Positions 2,229 through 11,352 are shown, counted from the stretch's first letter. The stretch: 64,000 bases of DNA from Nitrospirota bacterium (GCA_021791055.1 JAJYXI010000051.1:1653-65652); one strand, 5' to 3'. Numbers and translations: made by a program. Notes: generated by a model from the sequence alone, not told the origin.

Positions 2229-4844
2229 TCATAATGACCCCTCTGCCTTTTTCCTCAACTCCAAAAGCTTCTTCAAAGCCTTCTGCGGCGTGAGGGTTTC
2301 CATATCGATATTTAACAATTCCCGTGTAATTGGGTCTCCGGCAAAGAAAAGATCCATCTGTGAAGCGCGGGGCATTAATGTGCTTGATTCCCTTTTTTCG
2401 AGTTTATCTAAAACAGTCTTTGCACCTTCTATAACCTTATCAGGCAGACCTGCAAGCCTTGCAACCTGAATTCCGTAGCTCTTGTCAGCAGACCCCTTCT
2501 CAATCTTTCTCAGGAATATAACTTCATCGCCCCATTCTTTGACAACCACATTGTAATTCTTGACGCCATCTATTGTTAAAGAAATGTCCGTGAGCTCATT
2601 ATAATGCGTTGCAAACAGCGTTCTGGCTTTAATATTGCCTGCAAGATACTCTGCAACTGCCCATGCAATGCTGATGCCGTCAAAGGTGCTTGTCCCCCTG
2701 CCCACCTCATCTAAAAGAATCAAACTTTTTTCGGTTGCATTATTCAAAATATTTGCTGTTTCTATCATCTCAACCATGAATGTGCTCTGTCCCTTTGTGA
2801 TGTAATCCGATGCGCCTATCCTCGTGAATATCCTGTCAACAATCCCTATCCTTGCGCTCTCGGCAGGTACAAAAGAGCCTATCTGAGCCATAAGCACAAT
2901 CAATGCCGTCTGTCGCATATAAGTGGATTTCCCCGCCATATTGGGGCCTGTGATGATCAAAAGCCTGTTTTCATTGCAATCAATATGCGCACTGTTGGGT
3001 ATGAATTTCTCGTCAAGACTCCCGACTCCTGACTCCTGACTCCTGACTCCAAAGAGCCTTTCGATAACGGGATGCCTTCCATCAATTATCTCGATTGCAT
3101 CATCTTCAGCAGTGATAGGCTTTACATAATCATACCTCTTGGCGACAGTTGCCAGAGACAATAGAAAATCGATCATTGCTATCTGTGCCGATGCATCGAG
3201 GAGCTGATTTGTGTATTTCTGCATCTTTTCGAGTATGCTCATGTATATCTCGTATTCGAGCTCCTTAAGCCTGTCTTCTGCACCAAGCACCTTTGTTTCG
3301 TATTCCTTCAAATCCGGAGTGATAAACCTCTCGCAGTTTGCAAGGGTCTGCTTTCTTATGTAATCATCCGGCACGAGATGCCCGCTCTTTAGAAGATTCG
3401 GCTTTGTGACCTCTATGTAATATCCGAATACTTTATTGAAGCCAACCTTTAAGGATGATATGCCTGTCCTCTGCCTCTCTTCCGACTCAAGCCTCGCTAT
3501 AAAATCCTTGCCGCTTGATGAGATACCCCTCAACTCATCAACTTCCTTGCTGAAACCCTTTCTGATTATCCCTCCATCCTTCGGATTAACAGGCGGATTT
3601 TCAACAATGCTGAAGTCTATAAGGTCTTTTAAATCGTGGAATTCAGGGATGTTACTTCCAATCTCATTGATATATGAATTTACCGATGACAGCAGGAGCT
3701 TCTTTATTCTCGGCAGATGCTCGACAGAGTTTTTCAGGGCAATCAAATCCCTCGGGCTTGCGGATTTGGAGATAACCCTTGATGCAAGCCTCTCGATGTC
3801 CTGTATCCTTCTGAATGTCGTTCTCAACTCCTCTGTTAGTCCGTAATCTTCGATTATTGCCTCAACAGCATCCTGCCTTTTTATTATCTCATGAGATGAA
3901 AGCAACGGCTTCGTTATGGCATTTCTCATAAACCTGCCGCCCATCGGCGTAAGGGTCTCGTCCAGAACCCATAGCAGAGAGCCCTCGATAGAACTATTAT
4001 GATATTCGGCCTTTAGATTGTGCAGAAGTTCGAGGTTCCTCTTTGTTGTTGAATCAAGGAACATATACGATGTCTGATTTAAAACAGCAATTTTTTTGAA
4101 GGTCAGTATTTTCTGGGAATCTTCAAGATAGCTTATGAGCGCACCTGCCGCTGAAATGGCAGCATTCATGCCGCTGCAGCCGTATCCGTCAAGGGATGAT
4201 ACCTTAAAATATCTCAGAAGCATCTTATACGACTCTGCGTAATCGAAATACCAGTCATCATAATAAGATATATAGAAGCCTCTAAATGCCTCCTGATAAT
4301 GAAGGTTATCCTCCATGCTTTTAGGACAGAGTATTTCTCTAGGTTCATGCCTGCTTATCTCGTCCTCTATGGGTTTATCTGTCTCATAAACAATAAATTC
4401 GCCTGTCGAGAGATCAGCCACTGTTATACCATTCAGATGCTGATAAGGGAATATGCTCATGATGTATGCGTTTTCCTTGGGCTGTTCAGGGATGTGCGTT
4501 CCGGGAGTTATGACCTTCACAACCTCCCTCTGGATTATTCCTTTTTCTGGACCTTTGTCCAGCTTAGGGTCTTCGACTTGCTCGCATATAGCAACCTTAT
4601 GTCCTGCCTTGATGAGCTTTGAAATATAGCCATCTATAGAGAAGTATGGAACACCGCACATGGGCATGGGGTCATCCTTGCTTTTGTCCCTGCTCGTAAG
4701 GGCTATCTGCAATATATTAGACGCTCTCTTTGCATCCTCGCCGAACATCTCATAGAAATCTCCGAGCCTGAAAAGCACAATGGCATCATGATATTTTTCC
4801 TTAATGCTGAAATACTGCTTCATCAAAGGGGTAAGTTCAGACAC
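2229..4844 (-). CDS. mutS: DNA mismatch repair protein MutS
   Basis: 871 aa. N-terminal TPLMKQY..GDFYE mismatch-binding motif, Walker A GPNMAGKST and DEVGRGTST. In-frame heptamer insert (GVRSQESGVGS). Confidence 0.97.
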   Translation of the reverse strand: MSELTPLMKQYFSIKEKYHDAIVLFRLGDFYEMFGEDAKRASNILQIALTSRDKSKDDPMPMCGVPYFSIDGYISKLIKAGHKVAICEQVEDPKLDKGPEKGIIQREVVKVITPGTHIPEQPKENAYIMSIFPYQHLNGITVADLSTGEFIVYETDKPIEDEISRHEPREILCPKSMEDNLHYQEAFRGFYISYYDDWYFDYAESYKMLLRYFKVSSLDGYGCSGMNAAISAAGALISYLEDSQKILTFKKIAVLNQTSYMFLDSTTKRNLELLHNLKAEYHNSSIEGSLLWVLDETLTPMGGRFMRNAITKPLLSSHEIIKRQDAVEAIIEDYGLTEELRTTFRRIQDIERLASRVISKSASPRDLIALKNSVEHLPRIKKLLLSSVNSYINEIGSNIPEFHDLKDLIDFSIVENPPVNPKDGGIIRKGFSKEVDELRGISSSGKDFIARLESEERQRTGISSLKVGFNKVFGYYIEVTKPNLLKSGHLVPDDYIRKQTLANCERFITPDLKEYETKVLGAEDRLKELEYEIYMSILEKMQKYTNQLLDASAQIAMIDFLLSLATVAKRYDYVKPITAEDDAIEIIDGRHPVIERLFGVRSQESGVGSLDEKFIPNSAHIDCNENRLLIITGPNMAGKSTYMRQTALIVLMAQIGSFVPAESARIGIVDRIFTRIGASDYITKGQSTFMVEMIETANILNNATEKSLILLDEVGRGTSTFDGISIAWAVAEYLAGNIKARTLFATHYNELTDISLTIDGVKNYNVVVKEWGDEVIFLRKIEKGSADKSYGIQVARLAGLPDKVIEGAKTVLDKLEKRESSTLMPRASQMDLFFAGDPITRELLNIDMETLTPQKALKKLLELRKKAEGSL
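3017..3050. repeat. Tandem heptamers (GACTCCT, about 5 units) in frame in mutS
   Basis: gactccc gactcct gactcct gactcct gactcc. Confidence 0.9.
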
Positions 4845-4884
4845 GCTTTAACCTCTCAGCTAAAATTTATAACTTGCAATTATA

Positions 4885-5469
4885 CTACATACAGGGCAGA
4901 TAAACCCAAACCCGCCCTTCAGTCCTTGATTCTGTAATCCTTCGCACAAGTTTCTTCTTATAAAGGTTCAATAACCTCGTCCCGCTTGTGTTTGCAGGGA
5001 GATTCAATTCATCTGAAAGCTCGCCTGCTGTAATCTTGCCTTTGCTGAATATCAGATTAATAGTTTCCTGTAGGTAGTTATGGAGCGTGCCAATAATGGT
5101 TCTCCTTCCATCCTTCATTTCAGCCATTACAGCAAGGTCTTTCCTCTCAAGGGCAACCTCAATGTTCTCCTTCTGGTTTTCGTTCAACCCTTTCAAAACA
5201 ATATATTTGTCCCCATATTCACCGCTTACGAGCCTTGATATGAGCTTTGCCACAATCTCATCAGCGCACGAATAATCAATCACGCCAATTTTTGAGAAAT
5301 CGAGGGCGATGACTTCGCCATCCTTTTCATCCGCAATATCCTGCTCAATGCGCTCCCGTATCGCCTGCCCTGACTGCCTCGTAACAAGGTCAGACGAGCC
5401 GTTTTTAAGCTCTTCCTTGAGGAGTTTATAAAGGTTGTAGGTTGTCATACTGAAATTCATATCTCTCAA
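4885..5469 (-). CDS. STAS-like (DUF4325-type) domain protein with a C-terminal winged-HTH
   Basis: TRQSGQAIRERI...VIALDFSKIGVIDYSCADEIV resembles STAS/DUF4325. The C-terminal ITAGELSDELNLPANTSGTRLLNLYKKKLV looks like a wHTH. ATGA overlap with the upstream gene. Confidence 0.6.
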   Translation of the reverse strand: MRDMNFSMTTYNLYKLLKEELKNGSSDLVTRQSGQAIRERIEQDIADEKDGEVIALDFSKIGVIDYSCADEIVAKLISRLVSGEYGDKYIVLKGLNENQKENIEVALERKDLAVMAEMKDGRRTIIGTLHNYLQETINLIFSKGKITAGELSDELNLPANTSGTRLLNLYKKKLVRRITESRTEGRVWVYLPCM

Positions 5470-5924
5470 TGAATAATGTTCGGTCCTTTTATTAGCCTTA
5501 AATTGCTTAATCCGTTCTCTTCAAATTCTTTTCCATACGCATCAAGAAAAGGCTGCTCCTTGTTAATTCTTTCCTCAAGCTCCATTTTTCTGACAGTATC
5601 CTCACCATATTTTTCTATCAAATCCCTCTCTGCCATCCTGTACATTAATTCATCCCAGAATGTGTCATTATCATATTCATCAATAAGTTCCTCAACACCG
5701 GACTCGTCTATAAATTCTCCTGTCAGGAAAAACATTTTGAGATCTTCATCGTATTCGACAGAATCATCCATCCCTAAATCCTTGCAAAAAGACAGGATAT
5801 ACTGCTCAAGTTCATCAAACTCCTCAATCCTGTCATCAGTGCGATGGGCATTAGCCATCCAAGTGCCGAGGTGAAGAAGCTTAATAAGTGTCTTATACTG
5901 TTTTTTTGTAATGTTAATCTTCAT
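5466..5924 (-). CDS. Hypothetical acidic cytoplasmic protein (152 aa)
   Basis: Intact ORF with a GGGGGAA SD-like sequence upstream, translationally coupled to the downstream gene. I recognise no family. Confidence 0.55.
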   Translation of the reverse strand: MKINITKKQYKTLIKLLHLGTWMANAHRTDDRIEEFDELEQYILSFCKDLGMDDSVEYDEDLKMFFLTGEFIDESGVEELIDEYDNDTFWDELMYRMAERDLIEKYGEDTVRKMELEERINKEQPFLDAYGKEFEENGLSNLRLIKGPNIIH

Positions 5925-5938
5925 AAATTCCCCCTATT

Positions 5939-6187
5939 TTATTCTTCTAAAAGTTGCCATTCTGCATAGCCGTCCTTCCTCTCAATGAGTTTTTTGCCTT
6001 TGAAAATTACCTTCTTAATCGTTGGGTGAGTCTTAACAGTGGTATAAGCCCGCACAAGATTAGCAATCGTGGCCTCCTGAAATATAAGCTCCGTGCCGTC
6101 CTGAAGGACTATCGTAGTTCTCAGATGCTTATGCCCCTCAGGGATCTCGGCAATCAATTCCTTTATGTCTTCGTTGCGGAGAATCAT
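5939..6187 (-). CDS. Hypothetical protein (82 aa)
   Basis: Intact ORF packed 2 nt after the four-helix-bundle gene. I recognise no family. Confidence 0.5.
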   Translation of the reverse strand: MILRNEDIKELIAEIPEGHKHLRTTIVLQDGTELIFQEATIANLVRAYTTVKTHPTIKKVIFKGKKLIERKDGYAEWQLLEE

Positions 6188-6189
6188 TA

Positions 6190-6762
6190 TTATTTTTTCC
6201 TAACCTGCTGGCGCGCTTGATAAAGTTTTTCTGTAAATCCGCCTTCTTTTAGGAATTGCTTTTCCAGTTGCCGCAATTGCTGATCAAGAAGATAATTTGC
6301 CTGATTAATCAGGCAAATAAGAGTATTAGCAGCAACTTCAGAACTTCCTTCAATATAGGTCTTATAAGTCATATACGACCTATTTTTTTCCCAAGCAAGT
6401 TTTCTGATAGATTGCGCCTGCGGATGATTTTTCTCCCAAAGCAGCAGCCCTCGCTGACGCAAAAAATCATGATAGTCGAGCAGCAGTTCTTCCAGGCTTG
6501 CACGGGCTACACCTATTAGTTTTAGTTCGCTCTTCTTTGAAGTGCCTGATACCATGCTGCCTTCGGCAATATTCTGCTTGCCGCTGCGCGCTGCCTGTAC
6601 CATCTGGTCATAAGTGCGCGAACGTTTGTCAATAAAGCGATCACAAAATGCAATTGTGGCATCATAGATGATCTCAGCAGTCTGATAGGACTTCAGATTG
6701 CGGTATCCTCCATGAGGAGGGATAATATCAGGTTTTGACTTTTCGTTCTTTTCATCTATCAT
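6190..6762 (-). CDS. Four-helix-bundle protein (23S rRNA IVS / Avd-like family) with a C-terminal suffix domain
   Basis: YQTAEIIYDATIAF...QMVQAARSGKQNIAEGS...ARASLEELLLDY matches the four-helix-bundle (TIGR02436-like) signature. Confidence 0.75.
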   Translation of the reverse strand: MIDEKNEKSKPDIIPPHGGYRNLKSYQTAEIIYDATIAFCDRFIDKRSRTYDQMVQAARSGKQNIAEGSMVSGTSKKSELKLIGVARASLEELLLDYHDFLRQRGLLLWEKNHPQAQSIRKLAWEKNRSYMTYKTYIEGSSEVAANTLICLINQANYLLDQQLRQLEKQFLKEGGFTEKLYQARQQVRKK

Positions 6763-7025
6763 ATTTGAGCTTTTGCAAGCGTCTTAGATTTTTTTTGTAA
6801 TTTAACTGCTTCATTCAAGGCAAGAGTGATTGCTTCATGCCAATCTATATAGTCGCCGATTTTATCCTCAACAATCTTCAACTCATTACGATTTAATTTT
6901 CTGCCTAACTCCTCTTCAGCAACAGTTTGAACATCTTCAATGTTGATGGAATAAATAACTTTTAAGGGTTTCATATCATTTCCTAAATAAAGTGTCCCAT
7001 TTATTATGTATTCTCTTCTTTTCAT
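6759..7025 (-). CDS. Hypothetical protein (88 aa; possibly starts at the internal Met at 6974)
   Basis: ATGA overlaps at both ends (7022-7025 and 6759-6762). I recognise no family. Confidence 0.5.
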   Translation of the reverse strand: MKRREYIINGTLYLGNDMKPLKVIYSINIEDVQTVAEEELGRKLNRNELKIVEDKIGDYIDWHEAITLALNEAVKLQKKSKTLAKAQI

Positions 7026-7804
7026 TGACGCTTATAACGCGCAAAATACTCATCAATTTCAGGTCGCAATTCAATGCCAACACGCTCAAAAATATCAAGT
7101 AGTTGTTGATATGAACCTTGACCACCAAGAAAGTCCCAAAACTCTTCTGCAACTTTCAGTTCGTTTTGTAGGTCTAACATTCCGCGCATTGTCCAACGAT
7201 TATACGGTTGTGGGGCATACGGATTGTAAGGAATTGCAATTATAGTTTGAACATTAGTGCTTGGGCTCTCGGCTAATACTGCTGCAACCCACTCTAAAAG
7301 TGTTCTCTTAAATTCTTTAAAGCCTCCTACATTAGGTTTTGCTGTTTTAATATCAAAAAGATAAATAGTCCCATCATGAGCAATAAGTTTAATATCAACC
7401 TTTGTAAGTCTCACTGTCCTCATCTGCCCTTGCTGACAAACAGTTCTTATGGCTTCTATTTCAGCAGGCTTATTAGGATTAGAATTTGCTGTTGCAAGCT
7501 TATCCATAATGTTTTGAATGACATTATGAGCTTCAGAACTAATTTTTGTTCCTGCCACTTGTTGCGATAATGCGCTCTGAAAGTTTGCTGATGCTAATGC
7601 TTTTGCAACCGGCTCAAAAATGCTTGTACCAAAATTAGTATTAAGAGAGTGAATAAATGAAAACAGCGCCATTCTATCTTTCCCAAGTAGTCTTGTATGA
7701 AAAGGCATTGATGCAGGCTCTGGATTGTAGTTTTGAAATTTATTCCGCAAGCTGTTTTTTAAAACAGTTTCAACATTTAAAATTTGCTTTTCAGTAAGTG
7801 CCAT
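7022..7804 (-). CDS. Putative type II restriction endonuclease subunit A (TdeIII-like, assigned from memory of the family signature)
   Basis: FHTRLLGKDRMALFSFIHSLNTNFGTSIFEPVA N-terminal signature and a D..(D/E)xK-like YLFDIKTAKPN. Adjacent to the MTase. Confidence 0.55.
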   Translation of the reverse strand: MALTEKQILNVETVLKNSLRNKFQNYNPEPASMPFHTRLLGKDRMALFSFIHSLNTNFGTSIFEPVAKALASANFQSALSQQVAGTKISSEAHNVIQNIMDKLATANSNPNKPAEIEAIRTVCQQGQMRTVRLTKVDIKLIAHDGTIYLFDIKTAKPNVGGFKEFKRTLLEWVAAVLAESPSTNVQTIIAIPYNPYAPQPYNRWTMRGMLDLQNELKVAEEFWDFLGGQGSYQQLLDIFERVGIELRPEIDEYFARYKRQ

Positions 7805-7805
7805 A

Positions 7806-8612
7806 TTATTTCACATTAATAAGTTTTGAAAATCCATCCCAAATCTTCTTCTTATTTTTCTTTCCATAATTTTCAAAAATATGAAGCAATTCACTATATG
7901 TTGAGCTACTTTTACCAAGGAAGTTCCAAAATACTTCATGAACCTTCATATCACCAGCAGGGTCAAAATAATTTAAAACCTTAGGATTTTTATAAGGCTT
8001 TGGATGTTTGTTGTTGTAATAAATTCCAATGATTGAGTCAACTTTTTGGGTTTTGTGCTGATAATATCCCCAAGCCAATGCAGACAGAAGTCTTCTTTTA
8101 GCACCAGGGACTTCTGTTGTGTTTGGGTCTGGTCCTTTCATTTCAAGAAAATAATAGTGCTTTTTTGAATTATCATATAACCTCAGGTCGAATTCATATT
8201 TATGTTTTTCTATTTTTTTCGATGGATTATCACAGGCATTAAATATTTCATTCTTTTCTTTAAGATAGTTTGGATGAAATTTTACATTACTTAAACCATT
8301 CATTATTGAATCAATTTTTTGAAAAACATTTTGAGGCAAAGCGACATCAAGTCGCGATTTTCTTATAACGTTTTCTTTACCCCATGTTTCAATAGCAATT
8401 ATTTCAGCAATTATTTCCATCTCATTGCCGAGAGATGTTTTTAACCCATGAATTCGATGAAGCAATGGTTCAAAGTCTTTCAGAATGGCCATCACGAATG
8501 GATTGCCAGAGTTAGCACCAGAAGAATTAATAGCCTTCTGCAAATATTTTTTAACTACTAAGTCAATTTGTTTTATAATTTGCTTTTTTGCTTTTACTGA
8601 AATTGCTGGCAT
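7806..8612 (-). CDS. Putative restriction endonuclease subunit B, a diverged paralogue of 7022-7804
   Basis: Shares HxLxTxxGxxxE, YFLEMKGPDPN (versus LFDIKTAKPN) and the C-terminal EFWxFLG...Y..LLxIFE pattern with the neighbouring gene. 1-nt TAATG overlap with the MTase. Confidence 0.5.
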   Translation of the reverse strand: MPAISVKAKKQIIKQIDLVVKKYLQKAINSSGANSGNPFVMAILKDFEPLLHRIHGLKTSLGNEMEIIAEIIAIETWGKENVIRKSRLDVALPQNVFQKIDSIMNGLSNVKFHPNYLKEKNEIFNACDNPSKKIEKHKYEFDLRLYDNSKKHYYFLEMKGPDPNTTEVPGAKRRLLSALAWGYYQHKTQKVDSIIGIYYNNKHPKPYKNPKVLNYFDPAGDMKVHEVFWNFLGKSSSTYSELLHIFENYGKKNKKKIWDGFSKLINVK

Positions 8613-10198
8613 TATTTACTCCTTAAATGAAAAATAATTTCTGAATAAGCACCTTTATCTTTTTCAGTGCGGTTTAATACGGGCCGCTTATACTGATTGA
8701 CAATTTGCATACCTGCTTTTTCTGCAATCGTTAGATACATATTGTATTTGTCATTGGCGACAAGGAAAATATCATAATCATCAACTAAAAATTTCTTACA
8801 GTTATTGAGAACATTTGTTATTCCTTGAATATAGCTTTGTTTTGCTTCTCTGCTTTGCCCTTTGTAGAGCGGGCCTATCTCTAAGTCATCTTTACGTTTG
8901 AAACCAAAAAGGTCATAAGCATATGCATGTTGCTCGTGGTAATCAATTAGCCCAACATATGGCGGACTCGAAAATATTCCTTTGATTTTTTGCTTTCTCG
9001 CTAATTCCGCAAATGCAGGATATTTCTTTTCAAGTTCTCCAAAGATGTCAAGAGTTCTGCTATCACCAGTCAAACAGACTTGAAAAGTTTGAGTTCGTAA
9101 TTTATCAAATTGCGAGAGACGTTTAACAGTGTCTTTTGTATAGGTTTTCCACCATTTAAGAATGGAGAAAAGCGGCTTGCAAACTTTGCCATGCTTCGCA
9201 CAGTAATAAGTTGCTGTAATTGGTTCAAGCAATGTTGCTAAATCAGCGTGAGTTGTTGCTCTACATGAGCGAATAGTTCTGCTCAAGATAATACTAATGA
9301 TTCTTTTAGTGTCAATATTTTTTATCCTTTTGATTTCATCAAATACAAATTGAATTTCGTCTCTAACGTGTTGCGAATACCATTTATCAAGAAAAGAATC
9401 GGCTTTGTCCTGTCTTAATTTAATATTGTATTGCTTAACGAGTTTGTTGAAGATGGGTAAAAACTCTTTTTCCTTTTCTGCCCCGTACAGATTCTCGTTA
9501 ATTAGGTTGCGCTTGACTTTGTATTTGTATTCTGGGACAGGGAAATATTTATTATTGAATTCGTAGAGTGCTTCCAAAAGCTTCTCTTCAAACTCAATGG
9601 TGTGAGAGTTTAATAAAAATTCATTAAGTGCTTTTGTTATCCTGTTGATTTCCTTTTGGACATCATCCAAATTATATTTAGCAATTTTACAATTTCCTAT
9701 GAGTGCATTAAAGGCAGAAACATCAATGCCAATTGCATGCATTCCAAGTTCACAAGCCTGCACCATTGTTGTTCCACTACCTGCAAAAGGATCCAAAACA
9801 ATATCACCTTTTTTGAAATATACTTCTTTCTTAAAATTGTCGGTATGTCCGTCAAGAAAATACTCTACGAGTTGAGGAATAAATTTGCCTTTGTATGGGT
9901 GAAGTCGATGAACATGTTTTGTTGTTTCGGCTTCTTTGTATTGATCAAACGACAATGCCCAGTTAAGGTCTTCGCCTAATCGATCTTTCCATGAAAGCTC
10001 TCTCATGCCGTTGTAAGATTTGTAATATTTTATTAACTCCTGCTTAGAGACTTGGGTGGTTCCATTGCCTCCAATTTTCTTTATTCTTCCATATTGAATG
10101 AGATAAGCAATATTAGAGATTGTTACAGTCTTCCCAAGATATTTCGTTGCCCAGTCACTCGCTTCTTTAATAGTCAATAATTGTTGCGTCTCAATCAT
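8612..10198 (-). CDS. DNA methyltransferase (N4-C or N6-A type) with an N-terminal HTH
   Basis: Motif I VLDPFAGSGTT (about residue 143 of the long ORF) and motif IV SSPPY (about residue 418). N-terminal LTIKEASDWATKYLGKTVTISNIAYLI is an HTH. Start chosen at MIETQQ, which is preceded by AGGAGAGAG. Confidence 0.85.
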   Translation of the reverse strand: MIETQQLLTIKEASDWATKYLGKTVTISNIAYLIQYGRIKKIGGNGTTQVSKQELIKYYKSYNGMRELSWKDRLGEDLNWALSFDQYKEAETTKHVHRLHPYKGKFIPQLVEYFLDGHTDNFKKEVYFKKGDIVLDPFAGSGTTMVQACELGMHAIGIDVSAFNALIGNCKIAKYNLDDVQKEINRITKALNEFLLNSHTIEFEEKLLEALYEFNNKYFPVPEYKYKVKRNLINENLYGAEKEKEFLPIFNKLVKQYNIKLRQDKADSFLDKWYSQHVRDEIQFVFDEIKRIKNIDTKRIISIILSRTIRSCRATTHADLATLLEPITATYYCAKHGKVCKPLFSILKWWKTYTKDTVKRLSQFDKLRTQTFQVCLTGDSRTLDIFGELEKKYPAFAELARKQKIKGIFSSPPYVGLIDYHEQHAYAYDLFGFKRKDDLEIGPLYKGQSREAKQSYIQGITNVLNNCKKFLVDDYDIFLVANDKYNMYLTIAEKAGMQIVNQYKRPVLNRTEKDKGAYSEIIFHLRSK

Positions 10199-10260
10199 CT
10201 TTGTCTCTCTCCTAAGCATTCCTGTCTGTAATTATCTCCATAAGGTGCATTCTTCACCAT
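10195..10260 (-). CDS. Possible 21-aa leader ORF coupled (ATGA) to the methyltransferase start
   Basis: AAGGAGG lies 5 nt upstream of the ATG, and the stop overlaps the MTase ATG. Hand-translated as MVKNAPYGDNYRQECLGERQR. Confidence 0.25.
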   Translation of the reverse strand: MVKNAPYGDNYRQECLGERQR

Positions 10261-10262
10261 GG

Positions 10263-10406
10263 CTACCTCCTTTCATTAGCCACAAATCTTAAATTTTCTA
10301 TTGTTTCAAGACTGATGCTCAGAAAAAGATTACAAAGTTTCTTATCTTCTTCAGCAATTTCATTATAAATCTTTTCTGCCTGTTGTAATAACTTCTTTTT
10401 ATCCAT
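10263..10406 (-). CDS. Possible 47-aa ORF at the head of the R-M operon
   Basis: AGGAGAAAACA-ATG. Hand-translated as MDKKKLLQQAEKIYNEIAEEDKKLCNLFLSISLETIENLRFVANERR. Not in the supplied track because it is under 60 aa. Confidence 0.3.
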   Translation of the reverse strand: MDKKKLLQQAEKIYNEIAEEDKKLCNLFLSISLETIENLRFVANERR

Positions 10407-10426
10407 TGTTTTCTCCTACATTTTCT

Positions 10427-10443
10427 TCAACTGAATCAATTGA
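10427..10443. promoter_or_regulatory. Tandem palindromic boxes TCAACTGA / TCAATTGA overlapping the -10 (operator-like)
   Basis: TCAATTGA is a perfect 8-nt palindrome. The second box differs by one base and is 9 nt away. Confidence 0.35.
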
Positions 10444-10467
10444 ATCATATTTTAAGCTATTTGTCAA
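10439..10467 (-). promoter_or_regulatory. Putative sigma70-type promoter of the R-M operon
   Basis: Minus strand: TTGACA, a 17-nt spacer, then TTCAAT. It lies about 35 nt upstream of the 47-aa ORF. Confidence 0.45.
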
Positions 10468-10494: not shown

Positions 10495-11352
10495 CTAAAC
10501 CTCCGGCAGCATTATGTTTATCTGTGAGCCGGGGAAATACGAAAGTTTAGTTTCTTTTTCTTTTCCCCATGACCATTCAGGTATTATTGAAAGTCTTGCG
10601 GTTCCTGAGCGGATGGAGATTTTGCCATTCCATTGATTTACAAATCGCCTGACAGCAGCGAGTCCATGCCCCCTTCCCTCATCTGCATATCTTGAAGCGC
10701 CGTGAAGCAGCGCCTTTTCTATTGCCTCAAAATCATTCTTTAATGAAAACCTCTCTGACAAGGATTTTTTAAAGCCAACCCCAATATCCATGACAGCAAT
10801 CTTCACAACATTTTTATTCAGGTTTTGAAAATGGTATTTCTGTATGCCAACAAATCCTTTTTTCTCGCTGTGTTCAATAATATTCTGGCAGACCTCTGAA
10901 AGTGCAACTATAAAGCCGTTTATCGCTCTTTCATCATAATGGAGATGTTTTTTAAGGATTGCATTTGCACGTTCTTTAACCTTGCCCACGATAAAATGAA
11001 TGTCATCCGACTTCTCAATAGGCGTAATTTCAAGCAGGACATCTGAATAAGAACTCCTCCTATATTTTTCTGATATTTCAGGTTTGGAAGGCTCAAGCTT
11101 AAAGTAATTATCGGCAAACTTGAAGAAGTCCATCCTTTCGAGATATTTAAGGACTTCCTCTGATTCAGGAAGATAAAGGGTTTTCTGAATATTGCCAGAT
11201 TTAAGAAGCTCTCCGATCTCAAGGATGCCGACCATTCCATAAGGGTCAATGAAGGTAATATCTTGAAGGTCAATTATTGATGACTCATTGAGAAAATGAA
11301 GAACATGTTCAAATGTATCCTCTGTTATCTGGGTAATTGCTTGCGCTGGCAT
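10495..11352 (-). CDS. GHKL-type ATPase / Ser-kinase-like protein (RsbW/SpoIIAB-like) with an N-terminal STAS-like region
   Basis: N-box ALSEVCQNIIEHS, G1 VMDIGVGF and G2 GRGHGLAAV. The N-terminal IDLQDITFIDPYGMVGILEI is STAS-like. Confidence 0.7.
   Translation of the reverse strand: MPAQAITQITEDTFEHVLHFLNESSIIDLQDITFIDPYGMVGILEIGELLKSGNIQKTLYLPESEEVLKYLERMDFFKFADNYFKLEPSKPEISEKYRRSSYSDVLLEITPIEKSDDIHFIVGKVKERANAILKKHLHYDERAINGFIVALSEVCQNIIEHSEKKGFVGIQKYHFQNLNKNVVKIAVMDIGVGFKKSLSERFSLKNDFEAIEKALLHGASRYADEGRGHGLAAVRRFVNQWNGKISIRSGTARLSIIPEWSWGKEKETKLSYFPGSQINIMLPEV

Follow-up and report, generated by a model that had tools for sequence, protein, structure and literature searches.

A predicted CapK/CapS-type kinase-repressor pair enclosing a putative operator and variable, mostly restriction-modification cargo in Nitrospirota and other phyla

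Exploring a 64,000-nucleotide stretch of DNA from a Nitrospirota bacterium (GCA_021791055.1 JAJYXI010000051.1:1653-65652; hereafter the window), we found that two genes, one for a 285-aa kinase with STAS-like and GHKL domains (10495-11352, minus strand; capK-like) and one for a protein with a STAS domain and a winged helix-turn-helix (wHTH; capS-like), probably constitute a kinase-repressor switch of the CapK/CapS type. The layout is nested and lineage-specific: capK, a promoter/operator, cargo genes and then capS. An earlier examination of this DNA (the sequence-only reading) had described the two partners as bracketing a restriction-modification (R-M) cassette, and indeed a methyltransferase and two TdeIII-family endonucleases lie between them, all on the minus strand. 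The same reading treated this arrangement as special to the locus and called for a survey of gene neighbourhoods; the survey revealed homologues linked in 39 loci, adjacent in two and separated by cargo elsewhere, so that the bracketing turned out to be the rule for the clade. Because the molecular mechanism is already published for homologues, the pair is not categorically new; what is new here is the nested-cargo layout with its single operator, the R-M-dominated cargo, the host range and the strong conservation.

CapK and CapS ('controller of adjacent pathways') were described, as a switch that responds to DNA damage and controls immune genes, by Chambers, Rani, Min, Villa and Corbett (EMBO J 2026; PMC13373217), with the mechanism demonstrated for pairs of E. 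roggenkampii and V. cholerae. In their system CapK, with a helix-turn-helix (HTH)-STAS-GHKL architecture, is a kinase that single-stranded DNA (ssDNA) activates by way of W68, a conserved aromatic located between its STAS and GHKL domains, and CapS (STAS-wHTH) forms a dimer that represses both its own promoter and the neighbouring immune operon. When a conserved serine of the STAS domain (S54 in E. roggenkampii) is phosphorylated, the CapS dimer dissociates and transcription is de-repressed. S54 is absolutely conserved and located in the second helix of the CapS STAS domain, the N-box Asn of CapK is N218, and CapS crystal structures have been deposited (PDB 9Z71, 9Z72 and 9Z73) (PMC13373217).

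A profile of 38 CapS-like sequences searched against all PDB sequences gave significant matches only to 9Z72 (E 8.8e-5) and 9Z71 (E 7.3e-3), and the single window sequence had both among its best PDB matches over its full length at E~0.3; in the phmmer alignment, its Ser60 coincides with 'DSS' of 9Z71. Further likenesses to the published pairs are the order of the genes, the STAS+GHKL kinase coming before the STAS+wHTH protein, a conserved Ser where STAS helix 2 begins, a conserved N-box Asn (N157 in the window kinase), and the association of the pair with immune genes, R-M included. A conserved palindrome overlapping the -10 element of a predicted promoter in the capK-capS interval may correspond to the published CapS operator. 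Given the CapS-only PDB profile matches, the domain orders and the invariant Ser and N-box Asn, we assign the window pair as a predicted CapK/CapS-type switch. A distant relative on a Nostoc plasmid (kinase 31% identity; STAS-wHTH hhalign probability 98.6%) has the canonical order, the two genes being adjacent and the cargo downstream.

Analysis of 53 kinase homologues showed that the N-box, G1 and G2 motifs of RsbW/SpoIIAB-type kinases, recognized in the 285-aa protein by the sequence-only reading, are invariant (N-box E153/N157; G1 D189-x-G191-x-G193; G2 G226-R-G-H-G230-L). Pfam matched HATPase_c (E 1.3e-8, residues 150-251) and the RsbW-type family HATPase_c_2 (E 3.2e-5), and the nearest solved folds of the GHKL domain include SpoIIAB 1tid_A (template modelling (TM) score 0.67 on target), RsbW 6m36_G (0.72) and UsfX 8ih8. 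The N-terminus had been taken for a STAS-like segment lacking the phospho-acceptor Ser, in agreement with the alignment: Pro-Tyr (P37-Y38) occupies the phospho-Ser position of STAS antagonists, in a window segment, F34-I-D36-P37-Y38-G39-M40, whose F34-x-D36-P37-x-G39-M40 pattern is invariant in the 53 sequences, Y38 and F34 being conserved aromatics of this domain. We call the N-terminus STAS-like on sub-threshold Pfam matches together with model topology. The STAS family matched the window kinase at E 0.089 (residues 25-80) and 29/53 family members at E<=1 (best E 1.1e-3); an AlphaFold2 model (predicted local distance difference test (pLDDT) 84) has an alpha/beta N-terminal domain with a STAS-like order of elements, in which P37/Y38 begin helix 37-52. 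Kinase relatives number more than 3,000 in public metagenomes, and the best 120 of these are 79-100% identical and come from metagenome-assembled genomes (MAGs) of Nitrospirota, Nitrospinota, Planctomycetota and Syntrophales; on plasmids there were distant kinase relatives only (23-31% identity), and tblastn of the CapS-like protein against plasmids gave no match. With PADLOC, the kinase match was confined to the N-terminal GHKL portion of a single DrmA model (E 6e-10) and a weak PDC-M69C match was obtained for the CapS-like protein (E 0.014); neither defines a system.

The STAS-wHTH open reading frame (ORF), first read as 4885-5469 (minus strand; DUF4325 E 9.4e-6 and a weak wHTH match in Pfam), probably starts at 5448 and not at 5469, because most aligned homologues that retain their N-terminus begin at the equivalent of Met8. 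The description of this last gene as a STAS/DUF4325 domain carrying a Ser and fused to a wHTH held across the family: DUF4325 was matched by 38/38 homologues and the Ser of 'IDYSCADE' is invariant in all 38 (Ser60 in the 187-aa numbering, Ser67 of the 4885-5469 ORF). The AlphaFold2 model (pLDDT 93.8) places Ser60 at the N-terminus of the second STAS helix (59-74), and its wHTH superposes on MarR-type domains with a root-mean-square deviation of 1.4-2 A; Foldseek of the whole chain against a set of PDB folds that predates 9Z71-9Z73 ranked Csa3-type sensor+wHTH proteins and MarR-type wHTHs at the top. In one Nitrospirota MAG (L078:14541-15042) capS seems frameshifted, with two adjacent tblastn pieces in different frames, possibly a pseudogene or an assembly error.

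A GHKL fold closest to the anti-sigma kinases SpoIIAB, RsbW and UsfX would also suit a classical partner switch sequestering a sigma factor, as in RsbW/RsbV and SpoIIAB/SpoIIAA, and a kinase without HTH, as VapK, together with nucleases among the cargo, would suit a VapKSC-like toxin-antitoxin system in which the STAS protein inhibits a nuclease. VapKSC consists of the kinase VapK, the STAS antitoxin VapS with a short C-terminal tail and the PIN toxin VapC (PMC13373217). We consider both versions very improbable. Domain searches found no sigma factor or PP2C phosphatase among the nine locus proteins or the flanking ORFs, and no PIN/VapC domain in the window locus proteins. The window pair shares with SpoIIAB-SpoIIAA and RsbW-RsbV a similar kinase fold and a STAS-domain substrate with Ser at the N-terminus of helix 2, but here the predicted substrate is a DNA-binding repressor and the kinase has a degenerate STAS domain of its own. 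Likewise, VapK is also a STAS+GHKL protein without HTH, but the partner here carries a full, CapS-like wHTH unlike the short VapS tail, and neither a PIN nuclease nor any fixed third gene follows; because the cargo differs from locus to locus, no single conserved protein partner is possible.

To examine gene order, three neighbourhood look-ups and a scan of species-representative genomes (80 loci) were searched with both proteins. Of the related loci whose contigs reach far enough downstream, 39 have a capS-like homologue 66-94% identical to the window STAS-wHTH protein downstream of capK on the same strand; these come from Nitrospirota, anammox Planctomycetota, Nitrospinota and MAGs of deltaproteobacterial type. 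The capK-capS gaps ranged from 140 to 7401 bp: two pairs are adjacent (L056 and L057, 140 and 223 bp), nine loci have gaps of 0.7-1.9 kb and 28 have gaps of 2.1-7.4 kb. The cargo in these gaps varies by locus, and 93/95 cargo ORFs of at least 150 aa share the orientation of capK and capS. Bracketing by capK and capS is thus not due to chance and is the rule for the whole clade. This order differs from that of the published system, in which capS comes directly after every one of the 443 capK genes and the cargo is downstream (PMC13373217).

The cargo is dominated by R-M genes. A Pfam tally of 107 cargo proteins gave 21 N6_N4 methylases as well as D12, Eco57I and N6_Mtase methylases, nucleases of the MvaI/BcnI, TdeIII, MjaI, AlwI, EcoRV, EcoO109I and GIY-YIG families, and AbiEii-like ATPases, a protein kinase and HEAT-repeat proteins; PADLOC MTase_II matches agree with this tally. 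At least 23 of the 29 loci with at least 2 kb of cargo (28 public loci and the window) have a methyltransferase. The published loci differ in carrying Bub or CBASS as cargo, where these have mainly type II R-M, and the hosts differ too, the pair here being chromosomal, unusually conserved and found in Nitrospirota, anammox Planctomycetota and Nitrospinota.

Immediately 3' of the kinase stop codon is a predicted promoter/operator, box A, which reads on the minus strand (10467-10426) CTTGACA-N17-TTCAATTGA-T-TCAGTTGAA. It is composed of a -35 element TTGACA (10462-10467), a 17-nt spacer and a TG-extended -10 element TTCAAT (10439-10444); the palindrome TTCAATTGA at 10436-10444 (9-10 bp) contains the -10 element and is followed by the near-repeat TCAGTTGAA at 10426-10434. 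The exact double box occurs in 19 loci, once in each and on the coding strand each time, and an nhmmer profile built from the exact boxes matched at E<1e-3 in ~50 loci, always between capK and cargo. Box A is single in the 64-kb window (E 3.5e-16) and found once per 20-kb locus. In the cargo-free loci L056 and L057 it is immediately upstream of the STAS-wHTH gene, and in loci with cargo the nhmmer profile detected no second box A before capS.

RNA evidence was obtained from a relative, Ca. Brocadia sapporoensis (locus L052), in six metatranscriptome runs of two studies. Each run yielded one contig that starts at 6401-6442, shortly past the box-A-like promoter, and continues unbroken through cargo and capS to at least position 8634, at a depth of 104-201 compared with 0-13 over capK and the capK-to-promoter interval; cargo/capS RNA reached 20-50 times the capK depth. 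In two runs adapter letters adjoin the contig start, as for a real RNA end. The suggestion of the sequence-only reading that transcription of the restriction module could be controlled by phosphorylation gains support, by analogy, from the CapK/CapS mechanism (PMC13373217), from the putative operator placed before the cargo and from these RNA contigs.

Loci with the same chromosomal flanks differ in cargo. The window, L007, L008 and L009 share RNase R, a tetratricopeptide repeat (TPR) protein and an L,D-transpeptidase upstream and mutS downstream (the L008 contig ends before the downstream flank), and their cargo measures 5.0, 5.8, 2.8 and 0.8 kb, respectively. In pairwise comparisons of these four, homology at the DNA level covers the kinase gene as far as box A, then breaks, and is back at the capS start codon; downstream of capS are conserved housekeeping flanks such as mutS. 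The adjacency in L056/L057 and the different cargo between the same flanks support the proposal that a two-gene system was there first and now houses the R-M cassette. No integrase or transposase was present among the 25 most frequent of 48 cargo Pfam families, and no direct or inverted repeats flank the window cargo, which has only short chance matches and neither an att site nor a target duplication. Because there is no such listed gene and no flanking repeat, and because the cargo is bounded by the end of the operator and by the start codon of capS, we rejected the cargo as an integrative or mobile element. Most likely it is exchanged by homologous recombination via the conserved capK and capS arms, which is the simplest reading given that mobility genes and att-like repeats are missing.

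Could the slot be a passive insertion hot spot, in which an unrelated conserved pair merely flanks cargo that runs on its own promoters, free of control by the pair? Defence genes do often accumulate between conserved core genes, several cargo modules are mosaic and common to several loci, and regulation in the window organism is argued by analogy. As in known defence hot spots (P2/P4 phage, core-gene-flanked islands), conserved flanks enclose variable, defence-rich cargo with no mobility genes inside. The difference is that the flanks here are predicted partners of each other and the slot lies inside their own transcription unit, 3' of their operator: the insertion point invariably falls after the operator and before the start codon of capS, large cargo ORFs are almost uniformly co-oriented, capS has no box A of its own when cargo is present and in the window starts 18 nt from the last cargo gene, and the L052 RNA contigs run unbroken from the promoter through the cargo into capS. 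A passive hot spot appears improbable.

A third alternative, which we hold to be unlikely, though less so than the others, is that the pair is a host-wide chromosomal regulator of DNA damage or stress (SOS-like) in Thermodesulfovibrionia and anammox bacteria, with CapS acting in trans and the cargo hitch-hiking. In a tree of 73 kinase sequences, 13 Brocadiaceae form one clade and four Nitrospinota another, both nested within Nitrospirota, and host labels change seven times compared with 21.7 when labels are shuffled; these few changes indicate mostly vertical inheritance with few inter-phylum transfers, and such a chromosomal, largely vertical pair would suit a host-wide regulator. It also evolves more slowly than MutS and RNase R: in genome pairs with 64-65% identity in MutS and 68% in RNase R, identity reaches 80-85% in the kinase and 78-80% in the STAS-wHTH protein; both proteins are under unusually strong constraint. 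Moreover, loci with no or almost no cargo (L056, L057, L009 and L067-L070) keep both genes and the operator intact. Against a host-wide role, the window and the surveyed loci have their single box A at the pair itself, and the cargo is strongly enriched in defence genes, like that of the published CapKS loci.

In the CapK/CapS-type switch that we favour, the steps of phosphotransfer, DNA binding, activating signal and repression are inferred from the published homologues. A CapS-like dimer would bind the palindromic boxes overlapping the -10 element and the start site downstream of capK and thereby repress a single transcript carrying the R-M genes, the four small genes and capS, while the CapK-like kinase would be made separately at a low level. 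Once activated (by ssDNA in the published system), the kinase would phosphorylate the invariant STAS serine, Ser60, the phosphorylated CapS-like dimer would dissociate and the operon would be de-repressed. New CapS-like protein from the de-repressed operon would then close the loop, and the position of capS at the end of this transcript would make the circuit self-resetting. An R-M system as cargo could itself feed the signal by cutting invading DNA, as suggested in PMC13373217.

Several observations weigh against this assignment. The similarity to CapS is distant (E 1e-4 to 1e-2), the kinase was likened to CapK by published architecture and motifs, and profile-profile comparison of the kinase and CapS-like families gave no STAS-to-STAS alignment (probability 0.3%). 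The window kinase has no N-terminal HTH, its STAS-like domain already starting near residue 8; in the published work, deletion of the CapK HTH left regulation unaffected and HTH-less homologues (VapK) are described (PMC13373217). There is one box A site as opposed to two operators in the published system, and its half-sites TCAATTGA/TCAGTTGA differ from the published TTAA half-sites. Consensus scans for promoters and terminators in the window operon returned consensus-like sites, none above chance, and the R-M operon may have promoters of its own. The L052 contigs are unstranded assemblies that start ~25-30 nt downstream of the predicted start site, a position that could be a processing site because of this offset; they therefore show that cargo and capS are co-transcribed from close to box A and do not fix the exact start. 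Their high depth shows that the Brocadia promoter is not tightly shut under reactor conditions, and the window's own organism was present in DNA metagenome runs only and in no RNA runs.

Table 1. Features of the window locus and of the Ca. Brocadia sapporoensis locus L052
Feature	Position	Strand	Remarks
Window
capK-like gene	10495..11352	(-)	STAS-like N-terminal domain (~residues 8-100) and RsbW/SpoIIAB-type GHKL domain (~residues 125-285)
Box A, predicted promoter/operator	10426..10467	(-)	directly 3' of kinase stop codon
47-aa leader ORF	10263..10406	(-)	3' of operator
Type II N6/N4 DNA methyltransferase	8612..10219	(-)	PADLOC MTase_II E 2.8e-258
TdeIII-family restriction endonuclease, diverged paralogue	7806..8612	(-)	RE_TdeIII E 4.5e-35
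TdeIII-family restriction endonuclease	7022..7804	(-)	RE_TdeIII E 2.8e-93
88-aa protein, no assigned function	6759..7025	(-)	homologues in cargo of five other loci
Four-helix-bundle protein (23S rRNA IVS-protein type) with suffix domain	6190..6762	(-)	TIGR04258 E 1.9e-23
82-aa protein, no assigned function	5939..6187	(-)	stretch common to L007, ~92% DNA identity
152-aa acidic protein, no assigned function	5466..5924	(-)	cluster common to L007
capS-like gene	4885..5448	(-)	STAS (DUF4325) and C-terminal MarR-type wHTH; last gene of unit
L052
capK	4797-5666		
Ribbon-helix-helix gene	5899-6327		
Box-A-like promoter	6342-6387		
Small cargo ORFs	6470-7754		
capS	7764-8324		

On the minus strand of the window, ten co-oriented genes or ORFs lie between an L,D-transpeptidase-like gene and mutS, and the capK-capS interval holds 5.0 kb of cargo composed of the N6/N4 methyltransferase, two TdeIII-family endonuclease paralogues and four small ORFs (Table 1). 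The methyltransferase may start at 10198, because the family profile aligns from residue 10 and a Met is present at residue 8; that start would leave a short upstream ORF before it. The two tandem TdeIII-family genes (7022-8612) are strongly diverged, share a single methyltransferase and may form a heterodimeric or two-specificity enzyme. The four-helix-bundle protein recurs as cargo in three other loci. The 47-aa leader resembles the L052 ribbon-helix-helix (RHH) protein in its C-terminal half, with 48% identity across 29 aa; such proteins follow capK in Brocadia-type loci, and the leader, which is without the RHH part, could be a remnant or a stand-alone small protein.

Additional features were observed around the pair in other loci. 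An RHH (CopG-like) gene lies between capK and a weak box A in Planctomycetota-type loci (L002:5215-5556, L005:8911-9193, L035:10900-11232), preceded by at least three direct GTATTC repeats that resemble an operator of its own, and may constitute a second regulatory layer. In Nitrospirota, a small Cpn10/GroES-fold gene is found between capK and box A (L028:11056-11430, L055:2222-2602, L069:10865-11275); its position upstream of box A indicates a second, smaller insertion point before the promoter. A conserved ORF of 460-475 aa (cluster c2), absent from the window, directly precedes capK in at least nine Nitrospirota loci (L016, L027, L028, L060, L066, L069, L079, L082 and L084). Three Planctomycetota loci carry a partial second copy of the capK 3'-end (residues ~233-285, 68-71% identity) 0.35-0.8 kb 3' of the intact gene (L012:10287-10412, L017:11631-11774, L022:11198-11347), which looks like a scar of replacement or insertion at the capK end. 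In L017, L020, L027 and L041, some of which have box A, the 10 kb after capK contained no capS; either the cargo is longer than this or capS may be lost.

Other defence systems, namely C-protein control of R-M, CapW/BrxR and CapH+CapP, similarly employ a small DNA-binding regulator in or beside the operon that autoregulates and sets defence expression; the arrangement described here would differ in having a dedicated Ser kinase, a regulator gene in last position and interchangeable cargo. The window locus and ~40 relatives represent a second CapKS layout, in which the regulator operon encloses the genes that it is predicted to control, for the most part ordinary type II R-M systems, and they extend the CapKS family to environmentally important uncultured groups, the anammox bacteria and Thermodesulfovibrionia. 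More speculatively, the locus could be a natural plug-in slot, in which any genes placed between operator and capS would become stress-inducible and self-limiting and capK and capS would serve as arms for swaps across strains and phyla; conceivably the pair could even be the main ssDNA/damage switch of Thermodesulfovibrionia and anammox bacteria, with targets beyond the locus. As it stands, the layout is a compact, testable system for exchange of defence cargo without mobility genes, and if the proposed regulation is true, the promoter/operator and the two proteins might be put to use as a compact cassette for inducible expression. In these bacteria, DNA damage may govern restriction enzymes through a control that resets itself, which would bear on the safe keeping of toxic nucleases and on R-M establishment after transfer.

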